A stretch of DNA of 64,000 nt from Longimicrobiales bacterium (GTDB lineage Bacteria; Gemmatimonadota; Gemmatimonadetes; Longimicrobiales; Gaopeijiaceae). The notes below the pieces were generated by a model. The model made no database searches and was not told the DNA's origin. It saw only the letters and a program-made list of their open reading frames with translations. Below are positions 6,704 through 14,698 of this stretch, piece after piece (position 1 is the first letter of the stretch; every line of letters starts with the position of its first letter). The position numbers were made by a program, and so were the translations under genes. The stretch covers positions 2,816,001 through 2,880,000 of the forward strand of contig OZ241869.1 in assembly GCA_965202805.1 (NCBI GenBank), written 5' to 3'.

Positions 6704-7942
6704 CTATCCTCCCTGGAAGTTCGGATTGTTCGCGAGTTCCTTGAATGGCAACGGCCAGCAGGTCGTCGCGGAGTACGGTTCGTACCCGACTTTGTGATAC
6801 GGCGTCCCCGGAGACTGGACTCCGCGCAGCACAAAGGGGTCGGTGCGGAAGTAGAGCATCCGCTTCCCTTCCAGGAAAAAGTCCAGTGAGTACTGGTCCA
6901 TGAACTCGATGAAGACGCTTCGATCGTCCATTGCACCGTCGTACGGCGGCTGGCCGTTGGCTTCGCGCCGCGCTTGCACCAGGCTCAACTGGGCTGCATT
7001 CCCCTGGGCATGCGCCGCGATGTAGTCGGCTTCGAGCCTGGACGCGAGCCGGATGGGATCGTTGTAGCTCGTGTATTTCCCGGGGCTGAAGATCTCCGTC
7101 TGCCCATCCATCGCGTTGTGCTTGTTTACTTCCGGTGGAATCACGGTCACGCGAGGATCGTTCAGGTCGCGAAAATCGGGATGCACCGAGACGACCGACT
7201 GTCCGAAGGTGCGATCCCACACCCGGTTCGACAGGCGCGTGCGATTTGCGATGTCGTCCACGAAGGTGAGGTTATACACGAACCCCTCCGCTACCTGACC
7301 GGCGTCCGCGCTGGCCTCGGCCGTCCGCCCGAGCTGAAGATTGGCCCGGGCTCGTCCGACGAGACCGGCATTGACGAAGTCCTGGGCTTCCCCGGGCCCG
7401 AGTCCCCTGCTGACGTCGATGGCCTGAGAGAAGCGGTCCACGGCCGATTCGAGCATCGTGGCCGTGCTGAGTGCCGGCCCGCCGTTCACGGCTCCTTCGC
7501 AGTAGAATTCCGCCATGGCAATGTAGGACCAGCCTGTGAACAACGCGGCTCGTGCCGCGTGGATGCTGGTGGCTACCTCGGTTCCCTCAAGCTGCTCGGC
7601 GACCCGGGTTCCGAGAGCTACCGCCCGGGCGAGCTCCGGGAACTCGCTCGAGAGCGTCTGGTCCACGACGCGCGTGGCCCAGAGGTTCCCCGGCGCGTTG
7701 ATGTCCGCGCTGAGGATCTCCCCGGTGAACCATCCGCCCTCCACGATGAAGTCTCCCCATGCCTGCTTGAAGTCCTGCTGGGTGGACAACGCCAACGCAC
7801 GAGCGTCGCTCACCGGGTCGATTTCCCCGGCATTCACGGCGTTGGGATTGGGTACCGTCAGAAAGTCATCACACCCGGAGACCCCCAGGCTGACGACAAC
7901 AAGTGCGGCCGTGACCAGGCCCCGCGTTCCATTCTCTATCAT
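6704..7942 (-). CDS. RagB/SusD-like outer membrane lipoprotein
   Basis: Lipobox VSGC followed by DDFLTVPNPN; GRARANL TPR-like helices; FFLEGKR and CWPLP..E..NNPN terminus; directly after a SusC-like gene. Confidence 0.85.
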   Translation of the reverse strand: MIENGTRGLVTAALVVVSLGVSGCDDFLTVPNPNAVNAGEIDPVSDARALALSTQQDFKQAWGDFIVEGGWFTGEILSADINAPGNLWATRVVDQTLSSEFPELARAVALGTRVAEQLEGTEVATSIHAARAALFTGWSYIAMAEFYCEGAVNGGPALSTATMLESAVDRFSQAIDVSRGLGPGEAQDFVNAGLVGRARANLQLGRTAEASADAGQVAEGFVYNLTFVDDIANRTRLSNRVWDRTFGQSVVSVHPDFRDLNDPRVTVIPPEVNKHNAMDGQTEIFSPGKYTSYNDPIRLASRLEADYIAAHAQGNAAQLSLVQARREANGQPPYDGAMDDRSVFIEFMDQYSLDFFLEGKRMLYFRTDPFVLRGVQSPGTPYHKVGYEPYSATTCWPLPFKELANNPNFQGG

Positions 7943-7951
7943 GGTTCCCCC

Positions 7952-10900
7952 TCAGAATCCGAGATTCACCCGTATGCCATAGCGGCGTGCCGGGGGCACG
8001 TTGAAGAAGTCATAGGACTGGAATCCCTCTCCCAGGTCTCTCGCAGGGCCGGAGATGGCTTCGGGCGAGTGTCCGGTGTAGTCGGTCCACAAGGCAAGGT
8101 TGCGTGCCGAGAGCGTGACCGTGGCACGATCGGCTCCGAGCTGCTCTGCAAGTTGGGCAGGGAGCGAATACACCAGCGCCAGTTCCCGGAACCGGAGGAA
8201 GTCCGCCTGCTCGTACCAGGCCTCCCGGACCTCCGCCTTGTTCACTTCCTGTCCCGACTCGTTCACGAAGGGGCCAAAGCGGCGGAGCTGCTCTTCCGGC
8301 GAGAGGAAGTCCGGGTCGAACGCCGCGCGAGCCCGGACGAGCTGAATCTCGCGGTACCGGCGCTGGTTGTTGTTCACGTAGTAGTCGCCCTTCCAATCCA
8401 GCTGCGCGGCTACTCGGAGGTCGCCGAGGATCGTCATGGTTGAGGAGATGCTGCCCTCGTGCCCGGGGAATTTCCCACCGATGAACTCGAGCGTGTCCGA
8501 AACGATGACCTGGTTCCCCGCCACGTCGATACGGCGAATCTTCGGGGAGAAGAACGACGAGAGGGGACGCCCCTCGACGAAGCGTTCGAACTGTCCGAAG
8601 GCGGGAAGGTCTCCCAGATCGACGAGTTCATTGGTGAGGGTGCTCGCGGACAGGGTCACGTCCCAGGAGAAAGCGGGTGTGGTGACCACCTGGGCATTCA
8701 GCAGCGCCTCGAAGCCGCGGTTGTGCACCTCCCCGACGTTGTCGAAGGGGTCTTCCCGGAATCCGACCGAGGGCGGGAGCTCCCTCCGAAGAAGCAGATC
8801 CTTCGTCACCTTGTTGAAGTAGGTGAGTTCGAGCCCCAGCCGGTCGTCCAGGAAGCTGGCGTCCACCCCGGCCTCGAATTCCGTCCCCCGCTCGGGTCGC
8901 AGTTCGAGCTTCCCCGGGTTCAGAAGGCCGAGCCCCACCTCGACATTCCCGTCCCTGGTGGCGTACGGAACCGGATCCAGCGTTTCCAGCGTAGCTCCCG
9001 GCGGCGGAGCGCGCCCGGTTGCCCCATACGCCGCACGCAGGCGAATCGTATTGATGAAGCCCAGGCCGTCTCCGAAGAACGGTTCCTCCGAAACAACCCA
9101 CGAAGCTCCGGCCTTCGGCAGGTAGACGGCGCCTACTTCCTCTCCAAAGGAGGAGTTCCGGTCGACGCGCATGCCGACCTGGAAGAATAGCCGATCCTGG
9201 TAGCCGACCTCCCCCTGCCCGATGTACCCGAGCGACCTCTCCCTCAGGAAGCGTTGTCCCCCGGCGCTCTCGGCGGCGGCGGAAACCACGCTTGCGGAGT
9301 TGGTGGCGAGCCCCAGCCCGTCACCCCACAGGAAGTCGTCCCGGATATCGACCACCTGGACCCCGACTGCTCCGTTCGTCGACCACTGGCTGGCTTCACC
9401 GAACCGGAGAGTCGCGTTCGTGATGTAGTCCAGGGTGACGTACTGGAGGCTTCTGCGCGTCTCCCGAACCAATCCGGGATTGTGCGTGGATCGATAGAGG
9501 TTCTGATCGGTCCTGGGGATGTGGCGGACCTTCTCGTTCGATGTGTAGTCGCCACCCACGATGAGCCGATTCGAAAGCCAGTCGAAAGGCTGGAAGCCGA
9601 GCTCGAGAGTGGGCATGTGCCGGACGACATCGACCTCGTTCTTGATGGCCGCGATGGCGTCGACCTGGCGTGGACCGAGCCAGCCGTCGTTGGGCTCCGT
9701 CCCCACCGTAAGGGGGGAACCGAGGAGCGCGTTGGTCACCATCCCGTACAGGCTGTGGTTGTTGTCGGGTTGCCGGCTGTATGTCGTCAACAGCGTGTAG
9801 CCGGCGTTCAGGGTCAGGACGGGGTGCGGGGTCCACGTGACATTGACTCGGCCCGACCGCTTGTCGAAGTCACTTGCCGGGAGGGTGCCATCTTCACCCG
9901 AGGCAAACAGGGAAAGATAGTAGGTGAAGTCTCCCGTGGCCGTTCCCCCTCTCCCGGACCAGCTCAGGGACCTGTTGCTGCCCCTGCTGAAGGCGCCGTA
10001 CCGCTCCAGGGGATTGTCCGATACCACGGTGCCGACGGGCACTCCCTGACAAAGCGTGGCGCCACGGTCGATGTGCGTCTGAGCGCACACGCCCCAATTG
10101 GATGGTGGGGTGAAGTTGTCATGGGAGATGGCGTCGTACTCCGCCGTGAGGGTCTGCCGGAAGCCGCCGGCCGAGCCACGCTTCGTGATGATCTGGATCA
10201 CGCCGGCCGATGCATCCGCACCGTAGAGCGTTGCGGCAGCGGGTCCCTTTACCACCTCGATGCTCTGGATGTCCTCGGGGTTGAGGTCGTTCAGCCGGCT
10301 GGTAGCCTGTCCCCCCGTTCCGGTGCCGCTGCCGGAACCCTCCCCCGGCCGGTTCACCGATTCGATCGTGCCGTTGGCACGAATCCCGTCGATGAAGATG
10401 AGCGGCTCGTTGGAGAGGGATATCGAGGAAGAGCCCCGTATTCGAATCTTCTGTGACGATCCGGTGACGCCCGATCCGTGCGTAACGGACACCCCGGGGA
10501 TCCGGGACTGGAGGACTTCGGAAACGCTGTTGATTGGAGCCAGTTCAATCGTTTCCGCCGCGTCGACGACCGACACCTGCGCCGGCTGGGACCGGCGGAG
10601 GCTTTGACCAGCGGTACCGGTCACGACGATCTCGTCCAGTCCAATGGCTGAGACGGTCAACTCGAAATCGAGGACAGCGGTCTCGTCAAGTACGACGGTA
10701 ACGGTCCGTTCCTCCGTATGATACCCGATCCTTTCGGCACGGATCGTCACTTCACCGACCGGGACATTGATGATCACGAAGGATCCGCTGGCATTCGTCA
10801 ACGTTCCTCGCCCTGTCCCCGGGAGGTGTACCTGGACGCCGGCGAGGGGAAGTGATGTGCCGGCTGCGGTGACCCGTCCGGTAATCCTGCCCTCTTGCGC

Positions 10901-10990
10901 CTGGACCGGACCGGCCAGGGCCAGAAAGAGCAGGACGGAACCCGCCGCTGAAGAAGAAACCCGACGAGTACGACGATTACAGAACATCAT
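7952..10990 (-). CDS. SusC/RagA-like TonB-dependent receptor
   Basis: N-terminal carboxypeptidase-regulatory-like domain, EIVVTGT, plug motif DIQSIEVVKGPAAATLYGADA, C-terminal Phe. Confidence 0.93.
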   Translation of the reverse strand: MMFCNRRTRRVSSSAAGSVLLFLALAGPVQAQEGRITGRVTAAGTSLPLAGVQVHLPGTGRGTLTNASGSFVIINVPVGEVTIRAERIGYHTEERTVTVVLDETAVLDFELTVSAIGLDEIVVTGTAGQSLRRSQPAQVSVVDAAETIELAPINSVSEVLQSRIPGVSVTHGSGVTGSSQKIRIRGSSSISLSNEPLIFIDGIRANGTIESVNRPGEGSGSGTGTGGQATSRLNDLNPEDIQSIEVVKGPAAATLYGADASAGVIQIITKRGSAGGFRQTLTAEYDAISHDNFTPPSNWGVCAQTHIDRGATLCQGVPVGTVVSDNPLERYGAFSRGSNRSLSWSGRGGTATGDFTYYLSLFASGEDGTLPASDFDKRSGRVNVTWTPHPVLTLNAGYTLLTTYSRQPDNNHSLYGMVTNALLGSPLTVGTEPNDGWLGPRQVDAIAAIKNEVDVVRHMPTLELGFQPFDWLSNRLIVGGDYTSNEKVRHIPRTDQNLYRSTHNPGLVRETRRSLQYVTLDYITNATLRFGEASQWSTNGAVGVQVVDIRDDFLWGDGLGLATNSASVVSAAAESAGGQRFLRERSLGYIGQGEVGYQDRLFFQVGMRVDRNSSFGEEVGAVYLPKAGASWVVSEEPFFGDGLGFINTIRLRAAYGATGRAPPPGATLETLDPVPYATRDGNVEVGLGLLNPGKLELRPERGTEFEAGVDASFLDDRLGLELTYFNKVTKDLLLRRELPPSVGFREDPFDNVGEVHNRGFEALLNAQVVTTPAFSWDVTLSASTLTNELVDLGDLPAFGQFERFVEGRPLSSFFSPKIRRIDVAGNQVIVSDTLEFIGGKFPGHEGSISSTMTILGDLRVAAQLDWKGDYYVNNNQRRYREIQLVRARAAFDPDFLSPEEQLRRFGPFVNESGQEVNKAEVREAWYEQADFLRFRELALVYSLPAQLAEQLGADRATVTLSARNLALWTDYTGHSPEAISGPARDLGEGFQSYDFFNVPPARRYGIRVNLGF

Positions 10991-11258: not shown

Positions 11259-11786
11259 TCAGACCACTCTCACACCACCGTGCCCTGGTATCGCGAGCGG
11301 GATGGGGTCCCCCTCCGGAAGGATTACCGCTCCGATTGTTCCGGGGCTCGTGGGGGGTGGGGTGTTCTCCCCTCCTCCCGAACCCACGGCTTCGTGGATG
11401 AGCATGCCGAGCGCGGTAGCCAGGGCGGCTGAAAGGAGGCTCGTGCGCCAGACGGACACCCGCCGCTCATCGACGCGTTCAATCTCATCCCGCAGGAACG
11501 CCATGTGATCCTGAAGAACGCGGCTCCCGCCGATGCCCGAAGTACTCGTTACCCGAGCGACGGAAAGGAGGATTTCCCGGTCGTTGACGGAGACGAGCTC
11601 TCCTTCGTACTCTCGTTCGCTCGTCATGTCAAGCTCGCTGAGGCGGAGGGCACCAGCGACGGTCAAACGAACCCTTACATCAGTTCCTGGCGATGGGACG
11701 GAAGCCAATGGAGCGTAGCTGAAACAGCCGGCAAGCAAGACCAACATTGCCGGTCCGCTTGCGTACTTCAGGATCTGCGAGGCCAT
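11259..11786 (-). CDS. Hypothetical lipoprotein
   Basis: Lipobox LAGC; C-terminal hydrophobic helix. Confidence 0.65.
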   Translation of the reverse strand: MASQILKYASGPAMLVLLAGCFSYAPLASVPSPGTDVRVRLTVAGALRLSELDMTSEREYEGELVSVNDREILLSVARVTSTSGIGGSRVLQDHMAFLRDEIERVDERRVSVWRTSLLSAALATALGMLIHEAVGSGGGENTPPPTSPGTIGAVILPEGDPIPLAIPGHGGVRVV

Positions 11787-11837
11787 CGGCAGAGTTTAGC
11801 TTCTGCCTGGTGACCATGCCAGCCTCATCGATCGAGA

Positions 11838-11920
11838 CGGAGGCGGGGGGACTCGAACCCCCAAGGGCTTGCGCCCGCCGCATTTCGAGTGCGGTGCCTT
11901 ACCAATTAGACTACGCCTCC
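11838..11920 (-). tRNA. tRNA-Ser(CGA)
   Basis: Anticodon arm CCGCA-CTCGAAA-TGCGG, long variable arm, GTTCGAG T loop. Confidence 0.9.
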
Positions 11921-11977
11921 GGACGAAACCGGGCCGATCGGCATAAGGACGGAGAATCTTCTCCAACTACTCTTCAA

Positions 11978-12051
11978 TCGGGGCGCCCGGATTTGAACCG
12001 GGGACCTCTGCGACCCGAACGCAGCGCTCTACCGGACTGAGCCACGCCCCG
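11978..12051 (-). tRNA. tRNA-Pro(CGG)
   Basis: Anticodon arm CTGCG-TTCGGGT-CGCAG. Confidence 0.95.
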
Positions 12052-12130
12052 AGAAAGGGGTGCCGCCCGCAGGCGACATACAGCCAAACTGACAGCCGGA
12101 TCCGCCATCCAGCAAGGTGATTCCCGTCCG

Positions 12131-12391
12131 GCGGACGGGGTGGGATTCGCAGCCGAGGTCCGGCGCCAGCCGGCCCGAAGGCGAGGTGAGGGCGAAGCCC
12201 GCAGCCTCCACCCCGGGTTCGAAGCCCGTCCGGCCCGCCCGCCAGATTGGCCCGCCGTCAGCGGACGGGGTGGGATTCGCAGCCGAGGTCCGGCGCCAGC
12301 CGGCCCGAAGGCGAGGTGAGGAGGCGTAGCCTCCGCAACCTCCACCCTGGGTTCGAAGCCCAGCCCGTCCGGGGCCGGGCTCCGCCCGTCA
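12131..12391 (-). repeat. Two tandem ~130-bp tRNA-linked structured repeats downstream of tRNA-Ser(GGA)
   Basis: GCGGACGGGGTGGGATTCG (tRNA 3' end, + strand) at 12131, 12261 and 12392; shared core CAGCCGAGGTCCGGCGCCAGCCGGCCCGAAGGCGAGGTGAGG. Confidence 0.9.
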
Positions 12392-12392
12392 G

Positions 12393-12476
12393 CGGACGGG
12401 GTGGGATTCGAACCCACGTGGGCGTTAGCCCACACGATTTCCAATCGTGCGCCTTAAGCCACTCGGCCACCCGTCC
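12393..12476 (-). tRNA. tRNA-Ser(GGA)
   Basis: Anticodon arm CACGA-TTGGAAA-TCGTG, long variable arm. Confidence 0.95.
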
Positions 12477-12690
12477 GAACATATGTGGCCACTACAACCT
12501 GCAGGGATACCGCTGAAAGAAACACGGCCGGTTAGACCGTAACGGAGAGCATACCGACGCGAAGCCAAAAGAAACTCGCCCGACGAACGAAGTGATGCCG
12601 AGGGCTCACGATCCAGGGCGAGTACGGCGCGCAGGGCGAGCCGGGAGTCGCCGATGCCTCACTGGCAAAACTACCGCCCCCCAGGACACT

Positions 12691-12929
12691 GGTGAGATCA
12701 CAACCGAGGACCGCGCCAGCCGGCCGAGGTGAGGCGGATGCGCAGCACCGCAACCCTCCGCCTCGGGGGTAGCGGCCAGCGACCGCGCCCGTTGGTGACT
12801 ACACAGGGTGAGGTTCGCAGCCGAGGTCCGGCGCCAGCCGGCCCGAAGGCGAGGTGAGGAGGCGAAGCCTCCGCAACCTCCACCCCGGGTTCGAATCCCA
12901 CCCCCTCCGGGGCGAGCCCCGCTCGCCAG
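12691..12929 (-). repeat. One intact (12806-12929) and one degenerate (~12691-12790) copy of the same repeat downstream of tRNA-Ser(GCT)
   Basis: Same core at 12818-12859; decayed core CAACCGAGGACCGCGCCAGCCGGCCGAGGTGAGG at 12701-12734. Confidence 0.85.
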
Positions 12930-13015
12930 CGGAGGGGGTGGGATTCGAACCCACGAGACCCTCTCGGGTCAACGCCTTAGCAGGGCGCCGCCTTAAGCCA
13001 CTCGGCCACCCCTCC
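12930..13015 (-). tRNA. tRNA-Ser(GCT)
   Basis: Anticodon arm GCGCC-CTGCTAA-GGCGT, long variable arm. Confidence 0.95.
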
Positions 13016-13018
13016 GAA

Positions 13019-13091
13019 TTGCCCCGCCTGGGATCGAACCAGGACTCTTCTGATCCAGAGTCAGACGTGTTGCCAGTTACACCACGGGGCA
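13019..13091 (-). tRNA. tRNA-Gln(CTG)
   Basis: Anticodon arm TCTGA-CTCTGGA-TCAGA. Confidence 0.95.
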
Positions 13092-13136
13092 TCCTGTCCC
13101 AATTTGTGCGCTCGCCACCCCTGCTGGCAAGCAGCA

Positions 13137-13209
13137 AGCCACCAGTCGGATTCGAACCGACGACCCCGTCATTACGAGTGACGTGCTCTACCAGCTGAGC
13201 TATGGTGGC
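13137..13209 (-). tRNA. tRNA-Thr(CGT)
   Basis: Anticodon arm CGTCA-CTCGTAA-TGACG. Confidence 0.95.
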
Positions 13210-13259
13210 GACCATGCCGACCGCCTCGCGCATCGCGCATTTCGCCGGCCAACCAGGAA

Positions 13260-13332
13260 TGGAGCCGAGGGGAATCGAACCCCTGACCTCAGCATTGCGA
13301 ACGCTGCGCTCTCCCAACTGAGCTACGGCCCC
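13260..13332 (-). tRNA. tRNA-Ala(CGC)
   Basis: Anticodon arm CAGCG-TTCGCAA-TGCTG; G3:U70 pair. Confidence 0.95.
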
Positions 13333-13367
13333 TGCCTGCCCGCTTCCGCGGATACCGTGTTGAAGCA

Positions 13368-13441
13368 TGGGCGCGAGAGGACTCGAACCTCTGACCTCTA
13401 CGATGTCAACGTAGCGCTCTAACCAGCTGAGCTACGCGCCC
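13368..13441 (-). tRNA. tRNA-Val(GAC)
   Basis: Anticodon arm CTACG-TTGACAT-CGTAG. Confidence 0.95.
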
Positions 13442-13485
13442 TCGGCCGGAACCCCGTCCTGGCCTTCACCTCCCCCGGAGGGGAA

Positions 13486-13559
13486 TACGCCCGGGAGGAC
13501 TCGAACCCCCAACCTCTTGATCCGTAGTCAAGCGCTCTGTCCAATTGAGCTACGGGCGC
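13486..13559 (-). tRNA. tRNA-Arg(ACG)
   Basis: Anticodon arm CTTGA-CTACGGA-TCAAG. Confidence 0.95.
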
Positions 13560-13611
13560 TGATTTGCCGTCCGCCTTCACCAGGGAAGGCCAGCCGTTGA
13601 TGGCCTGCAAG

Positions 13612-13695
13612 TGCCCACGACAGGACTCGAACCTGTACGCCGTTTCCGACACTGGTCCCTCAAACCAGCCTGTCTACCAATTCCAGCACGTGGGC
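13612..13695 (-). tRNA. tRNA-Leu(GAG)
   Basis: Anticodon arm CTGGT-TTGAGGG-ACCAG, variable arm. Confidence 0.95.
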
Positions 13696-13744
13696 AAATG
13701 TTCTCCATCGAAACGCTGCCGCCGCCTGGCGCCGCGGCCTGCCA

Positions 13745-13829
13745 TGCTCGGAGAGGGACTCGAACCCTCACGGGGTTAACCCCCACAGGATCCTGAATCC
13801 TGCGCGTCTACCAATTCCGCCATCCGAGC
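13745..13829 (-). tRNA. tRNA-Leu(CAG)
   Basis: Anticodon arm CAGGA-TTCAGGA-TCCTG, variable arm. Confidence 0.95.
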
Positions 13830-13857
13830 TCGCTCGCCTCGCGAACGGACTGCACCA

Positions 13858-13930
13858 TGGAGCCGAGGGGAATCGAACCCCTGACCTCCTGAATGCCATT
13901 CAGGCGCTCTCCCAACTGAGCTACGGCCCC
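13858..13930 (-). tRNA. tRNA-Ala(GGC)
   Basis: Anticodon arm CCTGA-ATGGCAT-TCAGG; G3:U70 pair. Confidence 0.95.
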
Positions 13931-13970
13931 GATCCTTCGCCGATGACCCGATTTGTCAAGAAACAAACAG

Positions 13971-14044
13971 CGGGGCTGACGGGACTCGAACCCGCGGCCT
14001 CCGGTGTGACAGACCGGCACTCTAACCAACTGAGCTACAGCCCC
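13971..14044 (-). tRNA. tRNA-Asp(GTC)
   Basis: Anticodon arm CCGGT-CTGTCAC-ACCGG. Confidence 0.95.
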
Positions 14045-14074
14045 TGTTCCGCGCTCCTCGCGCGTCCTTCCAAA

Positions 14075-14146
14075 CGCCCTCACGGGGAATCGAACCCCGA
14101 CCGCCACCTTGAAAGAGTGGTGTCCTAGCCGTTAGACGATGAGGGC
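14075..14146 (-). tRNA. tRNA-Glu(TTC)
   Basis: Anticodon arm CCACT-CTTTCAA-GGTGG. Confidence 0.95.
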
Positions 14147-14162
14147 TCTCCCCCCAGTTGTA

Positions 14163-14235
14163 CAGGCCCGGAGGGACTCGAACCCCCAACCCCCGGTTTT
14201 GGAGACCGGTGCTCTACCAGTTGAGCTACGGACCC
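14163..14235 (-). tRNA. tRNA-Trp(CCA)
   Basis: Anticodon arm CCGGT-CTCCAAA-ACCGG. Confidence 0.95.
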
Positions 14236-14278
14236 CCGCGCACACAACCGGCCATCCTCCGGCCGGTGAGCCGGTAGA

Positions 14279-14351
14279 TGGCCAGGGGCGGAATCGAACC
14301 GCCGACACCGCGATTTTCAGTCGCGTGCTCTACCAACTGAGCTACCTGGCC
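14279..14351 (-). tRNA. tRNA-Phe(GAA)
   Basis: Anticodon arm CGCGA-CTGAAAA-TCGCG. Confidence 0.95.
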
Positions 14352-14382
14352 AAAAAAACGCCCGAACCTTTTCGGTGCGGGC
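14352..14382 (-). terminator. Intrinsic terminator abutting the 5' end of tRNA-Phe
   Basis: Minus strand CGCCCGCACC-GAAAA-GGTTCGGGCG followed by T7. Confidence 0.7.
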
Positions 14383-14407
14383 GGCTGGGTCGGGAGTCTG
14401 CCGGGGG

Positions 14408-14536
14408 CTACCGGCGAGTCCCGCTTCCCCGCCCGCGAGGGCTCGACCACGTATCGGACGGAAACCAGCGAAGCGCCCGCACGCGGCCCGACCTCTGGAA
14501 GGCCCGCGGTCGACGGGTTTCGGTCGCTCCCCGCAT
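14408..14536 (-). CDS. Putative 42-aa leader peptide MRGATETRRPRAFQRSGRVRALRWFPSDTWSSPRGRGSGTRR
   Basis: GGAGGCGGAGATC-ATG start context; stop lies 25 nt before the terminator hairpin; below the ORF-track size cutoff. Confidence 0.4.
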   Translation of the reverse strand: MRGATETRRPRAFQRSGRVRALRWFPSDTWSSPRGRGSGTRR

Positions 14537-14592
14537 GATCTCCGCCTCCGTTCTCCTGTTTGTTGCCTTGCGTCAAACTGTCCTGCTACGTG

Positions 14593-14621
14593 GAAAACGC
14601 CGCCATTTCGGCGGCGCTTTC
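14593..14621 (-). terminator. Hairpin or weak terminator right after tRNA-fMet
   Basis: Minus strand CGCCGCC-GAAAT-GGCGGCG-TTTT. Confidence 0.55.
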
Positions 14622-14624
14622 AAG

Positions 14625-14698
<74 letters not shown>

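Follow-up and report, generated by a model that had tools for sequence, protein, structure and literature searches.

Probable TLRs with a reverse-oriented core behind tRNA-Ser genes of a Longimicrobiales genus

The tRNA-linked repeats (TLRs) of E. coli, among them rtT/rttR, have been known since 1978 (Egan and Landy 1978; Rudd 1999; both cited in PMC8144298). In the sections of PMC8144298 drawn on here, a TLR is defined by its place in a tRNA or rRNA operon, by the presence of one to five repeats per locus, and by its ending in 18-19 bp of the end of the upstream gene. By the same sections, E. coli carries 22 such repeats at ten loci, for which no known function was stated in 2021, an early rtT phenotype having later been retracted. 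For three rRNA-linked TLRs, transcription, processing and in vitro binding to Hfq and CsrA are described, and the repeat was suggested by the authors as a signal for RNase E; the 19 tRNA-operon TLRs have a CsrA score under 0.01 (PMC8144298). A strain of E. coli without all 22 TLRs exists (supplement of PMC8144298).

Here we compare with them the repeats in a 64,000-nucleotide stretch of DNA (the window) from a Longimicrobiales genome of 4.02 Mb (G000; G-labels denote genomes and L-labels the loci compared). A preliminary description of the window had noticed repeats of ~130 bp behind tRNA-Ser(GGA) and tRNA-Ser(GCT) and had named rtT as a precedent. The precedent is closer than it had claimed, since the anatomy is shared and the core is similar. 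The window units lie directly downstream of the tRNA in a tRNA operon, occur in one to four tandem copies per filled locus, and end in an exact copy of the upstream gene end at Ser(GGA) (19 and 25 nt), which is decayed at Ser(GCT). A shared hairpin core is a further criterion, taken by us from the E. coli units compared and standing outside the definition in the cited sections of PMC8144298. By the published definition together with this core likeness, the units are very probably TLRs, not members of the Rfam RtT family. The RtT model (RF00391, threshold 45) gave no match in positions 12050-12935 of the window, on either strand and at E up to 10, nor in locus L042; in the control, 11 RtT matches were obtained in three of four E. 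coli loci scanned. At gathering score the window yielded tRNAs only, and no described Rfam family matched the units. Weak sX4 and miRNA matches in Rfam were rejected, their sources being a tRNA and a long inverted repeat.

What is new here is the reverse orientation of the core relative to the tRNA. In the literature within reach, which largely excluded subscription papers, we found no reverse-oriented TLR and no description of a TLR as single-stranded DNA (ssDNA), and version 3 of PMC10542128 has no rtT passage.

Anatomy and fold of the units in the window

The window carries a cluster of 17 tRNA genes at 11836-14698 (minus strand), all on one strand and without rRNA. Two of them are hosts of the repeats, namely tRNA-Ser(GGA) (12392..12476, minus strand), whose T-arm and 3' end are the copied target, and tRNA-Ser(GCT) (12929..13015, minus strand). 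The order at the end of the cluster, Gln-Ser(GCT)-Ser(GGA)-Pro-Ser(CGA), is kept across the genus and in the printed family loci. Directly behind Ser(CGA) lies a 175-aa ORF without Pfam match (11259-11786), at a place where relatives carry other genes, and positions 6704-10990 hold a TonB-dependent receptor gene and then a lipoprotein-like ORF without Pfam match. A third host locus, with units behind tRNA-Ser(TGA) (G000:C1:692959-693181; BLAST E 1.7e-24), lies outside the window. The preliminary description was right about the two window loci and had missed this third one, as well as the inverted 3'-end copy within the units. BLAST of the unit against the 4.02-Mb G000 gave significant matches at the window loci and the Ser(TGA) locus only, that is, tied to tRNA-Ser genes, and no copy was found away from them in this genome. 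Ser(CGA), whose 3' end is divergent, is without units in G000, as are its other tRNAs. At the Ser(TGA) loci (e.g., L042:675-3005) the downstream genes vary between genomes of the genus, and two G000 ORFs there have no Pfam match.

An intact unit consists, in this order, of the tRNA end, a spacer hairpin, an inverted copy of the T-arm and acceptor, a core of three hairpins, and a direct copy of the 3' end starting in the T-loop. The intact, tRNA-proximal unit GGA-1 (12262..12392, minus strand; 131 bp) scored 122.3 bits with covariance model R1, the unit itself being in the training set. Its small spacer hairpin (12376..12388, on neither strand in particular) has a 5-bp stem and a 3-nt loop, and begins with bases similar to the native flank. 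Next (12349..12371, plus strand) come the T-arm and acceptor 3' strand of the tRNA, copied in inverted form. The core (12282..12343, plus strand; ends approximate) is read on the anti-tRNA strand and is made up of a GCCA-loop hairpin (12290-12303), a CC-GAA-GG hairpin (12305-12311) and a module of stem, internal loop and GTA triloop (12313-12342). The unit is closed by a direct copy of the tRNA-Ser(GGA) 3' end from position 56 (12261..12279, minus strand). The distal unit GGA-2 (12132..12261, minus strand; 130 bp) has kept its core (module 12183-12208), its spacer and inverted arm are degraded, and an exact 19-nt 3'-end copy (12131-12149) closes it. Identity of the Ser(GGA) direct copies begins at tRNA position 56 and runs over 25 and 19 nt, with periods of 131 and 130. 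The periods, the 19-nt copies and the small stems named in the preliminary description were thus all present. A short palindrome overlapping the last 3'-end copy (12123..12139, no strand assigned) had been taken for a collapsed unit; it is likely native flank instead, as similar stretches of 8-9 nt follow in the unit-free allele of G013 and behind the last copies in G011 and G018.

Behind Ser(GCT), unit GCT-1 (12800..12929, minus strand; 130 bp) has an intact core and a decayed 3'-end copy. Its parts are a spacer hairpin (12911-12927), an inverted arm (12887-12909) matching the tRNA (12930-12952) exactly at 23/23 positions, the core module (12851-12880) and the decayed copy (12800-12817). That the same core stands at both loci was borne out by a core stretch at Ser(GCT), 12817-12859, identical over 43 nt to that at Ser(GGA). 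The decayed unit GCT-2 was also found (12683..12799, minus strand; 22.5 bits by covariance model), and a remnant similar to it occupies the same place in several genomes of the genus. A pattern for the stem-loop module occurred four times in the whole of G000, each time (4/4) inside a unit, and in one of 2100 shuffled units.

We aligned 42 units (38 proximal and 4 distal), these being the intact ones of 58 parsed units plus that of G000 Ser(TGA). An RNAalifold fold on the raw MAFFT alignment was misregistered and was rejected; the structure was hand-set on the alignment, and its pair counts lean towards it. With this structure 85.6% of the cells were paired, and changes on both sides of a pair were seen in 113 cells as against 53.5 in shuffles (0/500 reaching it) and 12-30 when the structure was slid. 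A weaker measure is the number of pairs with a both-side change, 17, which 31 of 500 shuffles attained. The earlier view of a non-coding, tRNA-linked, structured element in which pairing is kept by compensatory change was supported. In the fold, inverted arm and direct copy pair to form a long stem; there is also a short stem, and the three hairpins branch from a junction.

The preliminary description had placed this fold on the transcribed strand, and here the opposite strand is better supported, both by the loops and by folding as DNA. The loops, 3 to 7 in length, are of the T..C kind on the tRNA strand as against G..A on the anti-tRNA strand, where they read GAA, GTA, GCA, GCCA, GACA and similar at any length. 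Loops of the G..A kind stabilise DNA hairpins. Hairpins of the form C-G..A-G were present on the anti-tRNA strand in 39/39 proximal cores and on the tRNA strand in 0/39, with 199 of 3000 random 72-nt genome windows as control. With DNA parameters, 36 of the 39 proximal units gave the better fold on the anti-tRNA strand, and with RNA parameters 29 of 39 did. The anti-tRNA strand also carried the core module in 36 of the 42 aligned units of the genus; no unit had it on the tRNA strand. G-T wobbles favour the tRNA strand at column pairs 52-120 (42/42), 68-79 (8) and 56-90 (9), and the anti-tRNA strand at 51-121 (36). When the anti-tRNA strand was closed as a circle, a dumbbell was predicted, the stem of which duplicates the tRNA end. 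Judged by GC skew, the loop strand would be the leading-strand template at one locus and the lagging-strand template at the other, giving no link with the replication strand.

Orientation of the core in the genus and beyond

E. coli TLRs share with the window units an inverted segment and the order of the hairpins (a G..A loop, CC-GNA-GG, and a GCGAAGC-type hairpin). When the 39 proximal cores were aligned to 11 E. coli TLR cores, the mean z was 2.84 for the anti-tRNA strand versus -0.02 for the tRNA strand, the former being higher in 39/39, and z exceeded 2 in 29/39 cores on the anti-tRNA strand versus 2/39 on the other. In E. coli, however, the loops of the core lie only on the tRNA strand in 11/11 tRNA-linked units examined, and the core is reversed in the window genus. 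The two also differ in the start of the direct copy, which is 58-59 in E. coli and 56 in the window, and in the inverted arm, which is longer and nearly perfect in the window. An arm reading ATGAGAA recurs in the E. coli tyr/serX units and in Pro units of Gemmatimonadota, and spacers derive from the host flank, as can be seen on comparing E. coli serX with serW.

We collected repeats defined only by a duplicated tRNA end from 30 Ser(GGA) loci of the family, 20 further regions and the E. coli tyr locus. This gave 40 repeats, 38 from family genomes and 2 from E. coli, behind Pro(CGG), four Ser species, Val and the E. coli Tyr. Where the copy starts at 58-60 (n=34), the loops were on the tRNA strand in 25, on the opposite strand in 0 and tied in 9; where it starts at 52-56 (n=6), they were on the anti-tRNA strand in 4, with one tie and one opposite. 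In the units of the window genus the direct copy begins at 55-56, and in forward units of other Gemmatimonadota at 58-60. Both orientations occur within one operon in L090 and in L102.

A pattern search for the terminal module gave 82 distinct matches, which may overlap the 40-repeat set. Among these, 33 stand directly before a copy of the end of the upstream tRNA (Arg, Ser, Pro), 8 are near a tRNA or tmRNA, one is reversed beside a tRNA-Leu in a Myxococcota bin, and 40, chance matches and contig ends among them, have no tRNA called nearby. A related motif was assigned to Gemmatimonadota in 44 of 54 named loci. The core serves many targets, namely Ser, Pro, Arg and tmRNA. In the forward set the module was found in 40 of 46, a set selected by a similar pattern and hence not independent. 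The CTCA/CTCC end variants are common to both orientations. In forward units the core stands between TTCGA and A(T) of the second T-arm copy; in those of the window genus it occupies the corresponding position on the opposite strand, TTCGAA being a palindrome. A profile HMM built from 46 tRNA-strand cores did not find the window units in G000, and it missed the E. coli units as well; the link between the orientations therefore rests on the motif test and on alignments to short cores. Two Rfam scans of forward-unit spacers returned nothing.

Some loci depart from the usual arrangement. L153, L164, L166 and L190 have tRNA fragments that pass directly into the core at TTCGA^A; the junction, which occurs on one strand or the other, lacks a duplication. 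In a single case (L187:1890-2130) the 5' half of tRNA-Pro(GGG) is duplicated and its anticodon arm carries the core, inserted at GA^AT; an intact tRNA-Pro(GGG) with its own downstream repeat lies downstream of the insertion. L153:2000-3500 holds tRNA-Arg(CCG), three forward units, an antitoxin and PIN-like toxin pair (identified by eye) and the tRNA fragment joined to a core; the toxin pair is possibly cargo captured between units. In L149, L152, L175 and L185, where a core is found with a copy of a tRNA end, the 2 kb upstream contain no tRNA; these loci may be the far ends of cargo islands. At L176:1772-1990 a long ORF and a 3' segment that resemble a group II intron in a motif end just before an inverted tmRNA-end copy and a core. 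In L145, L148 and L188 the core follows tmRNA genes, regenerating the tmRNA 3' end.

Copy number and inheritance in the genus

BLAST located the unit in 17 of the genus's 19 genomes, counting G000; 42 genomes from outside the genus gave one weak match, not at a tRNA. The covariance model matched 9 of 151 genomes of the order, all 9 of them within the genus. The genus matches examined all lay behind Ser(GCT), Ser(GGA) or Ser(TGA), barring one weak match of 26 nt. Among labelled samples, those holding the best matching sequence were sponge, marine and coral metagenomes. All counts across genomes given here are of kin and are not independent.

As the preliminary description had anticipated, copy number varies among relatives, from 0 to 4 per tRNA, and empty alleles exist. 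Filled loci had 1-3 parsed copies in the 17 genomes, and 4 were counted by eye at Ser(TGA) of G009 and G012; free of units were Ser(GGA) in G013 and all three tRNA-Ser genes in G007. In a contig of run X5 exactly one 130-bp unit was skipped, with 61 letters fitting on either side. A 122-base skip in X5 was left out, its intervening letters being unknown, and the contigs of the RNA runs, which come from small shares, give no transcription, strand or ends. The filled and empty alleles and the 130-bp skip fit slippage as well as mobility, and no excision circle was seen in the contigs. Serial insertion, as first suggested, may still have built the arrays; some copy gains look like plain tandem duplication, as in G009 with its three identical tandem copies, and the Ser(GCT) arrays look old, the direct copy being decayed with arm and core intact. 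At L032:2160-2460 (G009 Ser(TGA); approximate) a fourth unit is split by an insert of ~190 bp between inverted arm and core.

For spacer and inverted arm, 32 of 38 units had their nearest relative at the corresponding tRNA in a different genome, and the units are therefore mostly inherited in place. At the one base of the inverted arm that differs, G was found in 14/14 GCT and 11/12 TGA units, and C in 10/12 GGA units; judged by this base, the inverted arm follows its own host tRNA. Core likeness between the tRNA loci of one genome was above that with permuted labels (0/500). The unit tree, with 7 of 39 inner branches starred, was weakly supported and gave only a hint of mixing between GGA and GCT units. 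Of 38 units, 30 had an inverted arm closer to the tRNA than their direct copy was, and in none was the arm the worse match; at Ser(GCT), 8.3 of 13 bases are kept in the direct copy and 11.6 of 13 in the inverted arm.

The remark that the proximal copy is better kept held across the genus, as it folded better than the second in 14 of 15 arrays. In distal units the fold is mostly gone (mean z of -0.45 versus -3.59 in proximal ones), and the inverted T-loop is kept in 5/19 versus 37/39. Selection or conversion therefore seems to maintain the proximal copy where it is.

Action and origin of the reversed units

The reading towards which we lean is that the reversed TLRs may well act as folded ssDNA lodging at the tRNA T-loop by single-strand exchange. 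Taken separately, action as folded DNA is probable, and origin by single-strand insertion at the T-loop is favoured with less assurance. A closed single strand would form a dumbbell in which the stem copies the tRNA 3' end as a duplex, the branched core capping it on one side and the spacer on the other. The E. coli orientation would result if the tRNA-like arm were exchanged with the tRNA strand, and that of the window genus if the complementary arm were exchanged. After replication either exchange would regenerate the tRNA, and older copies would be pushed outward and decay. Once in place, the units would change in number by slippage or by recombination between direct repeats, cores would be exchanged between the tRNA loci of one genome, and the proximal copy would be kept by selection or conversion. 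Against active mobility stand the lack of an enzyme linked to the units and of copies dispersed or carried by phages, the specificity of spacers and arms for their locus, and the decayed direct copy at Ser(GCT) beside an intact inverted arm, which fresh insertion would not predict.

As for the enzyme, a tyrosine recombinase acting in trans would be the first guess, by analogy with CTX attP and integron attC. Folded ssDNA, one-strand exchange and replicative resolution have a precedent in the cited parts of PMC3442271, as has recombination of folded ssDNA by one-strand exchange in those of PMC4792948. At CTX attP (with XerCD) and integron attC, a folded single strand serves as the duplex site and one strand pair is exchanged (PMC3442271, PMC4792948), and for the window units we infer the same. 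They differ in that the window target is the tRNA T-loop rather than dif or attI, and in that no phage or cassette gene is present. The attC signature is RYYYAAC...GTTRRRY with IntI; in the window genus the GTT is broken in 18 of 42 units (column 124), and an integron-integrase profile, with which 6 of the 11 tyrosine recombinases of G000 were scanned, gave none above cut-off. Arrays of the integron and CTX type are polarised, as are those of the window genus. IMEX (CTX-like) elements use dif via XerCD, and the target here is tRNA-Ser.

The absence of integrase and reverse transcriptase genes from the window was confirmed, no tyrosine recombinase or reverse transcriptase being found there. None of the 11 tyrosine recombinases of G000 lies within 385 kb of the window units. 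XerC- and XerD-like genes are present in G000, and no reverse transcriptase was found in this genome; inspection of 14 Ser(TGA) loci by eye revealed no integrase ORF. The search for IS91-type enzymes was made without a positive control. Four closely related tyrosine integrases of one subfamily are located at G000:C1:1003725, 1109278, 2045230 and 3214853, and two of these adjoin tRNA-Leu(CAA) and tRNA-Ile. No copy of the genus unit was found in phages or plasmids, and the 7 matches of a viral pattern scan were all away from any tRNA. A viral match in L031 was rejected, as it was only a tRNA-Gln end; this viral contig (L031:511-5526) packs 39 tRNA genes into 5 kb. Matches to the E. coli core came from one 'phage' record, which is a Salmonella contig, and from 29 'plasmid' records, several of them chromosome-sized.

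At the att sites of islands and prophages that target tRNA genes, integration reportedly leaves a second copy of the tRNA 3' end that starts in the T-loop (Williams 2002). Such scars resemble the window units in this copy; the units differ in having no integrase nearby and in having a covarying structured core and an inverted target copy. REP-type repeats, which are thought to act as ssDNA, are likewise small non-coding hairpin DNA in tandem arrays. REP/REPIN/BIME with RAYT and the ends of IS200/IS605 differ in that the window units are confined to three tRNA-Ser genes, and neither the dispersed copies nor the RAYT/Y1 enzyme of REP/REPIN systems was found in the genus.

A wider version of our reading can be put forward only tentatively. 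TLRs, rtT included, would then be ancient, cross-phylum, protein-free ssDNA dumbbell elements and not RNAs, with a core set on a duplex copy of a tRNA or tmRNA end, integration at the T-loop by exchange of one strand on either strand, and the arm as a swappable guide or att copy.

A rival account does without any such enzyme. A template switch at the spacer hairpin could have copied the tRNA 3' end both ways around an ancient core, the host keeping the first copy as a DNA or cruciform site and the arrays changing by slippage only. The direct-inverted-direct layout would follow, as would the mostly in-place inheritance, the identical tandem copies of G009, the 130-bp skip in X5 and spacers taken from the host flank, as in E. 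coli serX versus serW; correction within a palindrome would also leave the arm better than the direct copy, as in the 30 of 38 units. We nevertheless regard this account as unlikely, because it accounts neither for a conserved core whose junction with the T-loop is constant behind Ser, Pro, Arg, tmRNA, Lys and Tyr, across two phyla and both orientations, nor for the GA^AT insertion in L187.

Rather more doubtful is that the unit acts in the precursor RNA, whether by directing processing, by giving rise to a small RNA, or through an antisense arm that would sequester the 3' end of tRNA-Ser and delay its maturation. The units do lie inside a tRNA operon, and in predicted equilibrium folding the acceptor stem falls from 0.84-1.0 to 0-0.18 with the inverted arm; the arm is thus predicted to disrupt the tRNA cloverleaf in the precursor at equilibrium, and an RNA-level effect may exist. 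Some of the G-U wobbles favour the transcribed strand, and the rRNA-linked TLRs of E. coli are processed and bind Hfq and CsrA in vitro; the low CsrA score of tRNA-operon TLRs and the lack of a known function of TLRs, as given in the same sections of PMC8144298, speak the other way. Relative to transcription, moreover, the core runs antisense in the window genus but sense in other Gemmatimonadota and in E. coli; used both ways, it can have no single RNA function. In the transcript its loops read U..C, and the second closing pair of CUUCGG is present in only 12 of 42 units (column 98). Least probable is a HUH-type (Y1/REP-like) element whose core is cut and pasted at GA^AT with the inverted arm as a DNA guide pairing with the target T-arm, for the cores joined without duplication at TTCGA^A (L153, L164, L166, L190), the TGA^AT of L187, and a target-specific arm of which the ATGAGAA version recurs in E. 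coli and Gemmatimonadota Pro units are set against the absence of Y1 transposase from 19/19 genus genomes (the control gave a signal in 6/14), the lack of dispersed copies, and the fact that the T-loop cases are also possible by deletion between short direct repeats.

TLRs have so far been studied as RNAs, as far as the cited sections of PMC8144298 go. A back-to-front core, which in some relatives stands beside the forward form in one operon, separates function at the level of DNA from function at the level of RNA, and the reversed form names the strand and the loops to mutate, with E. coli as test bed. If the mobility model holds, the units would represent a tRNA-targeting element of minimal size, located at the sites most often used for integration in bacteria, and if the arm is a guide or att copy, a borrowed host enzyme would be retargetable by changing ~20 bases.
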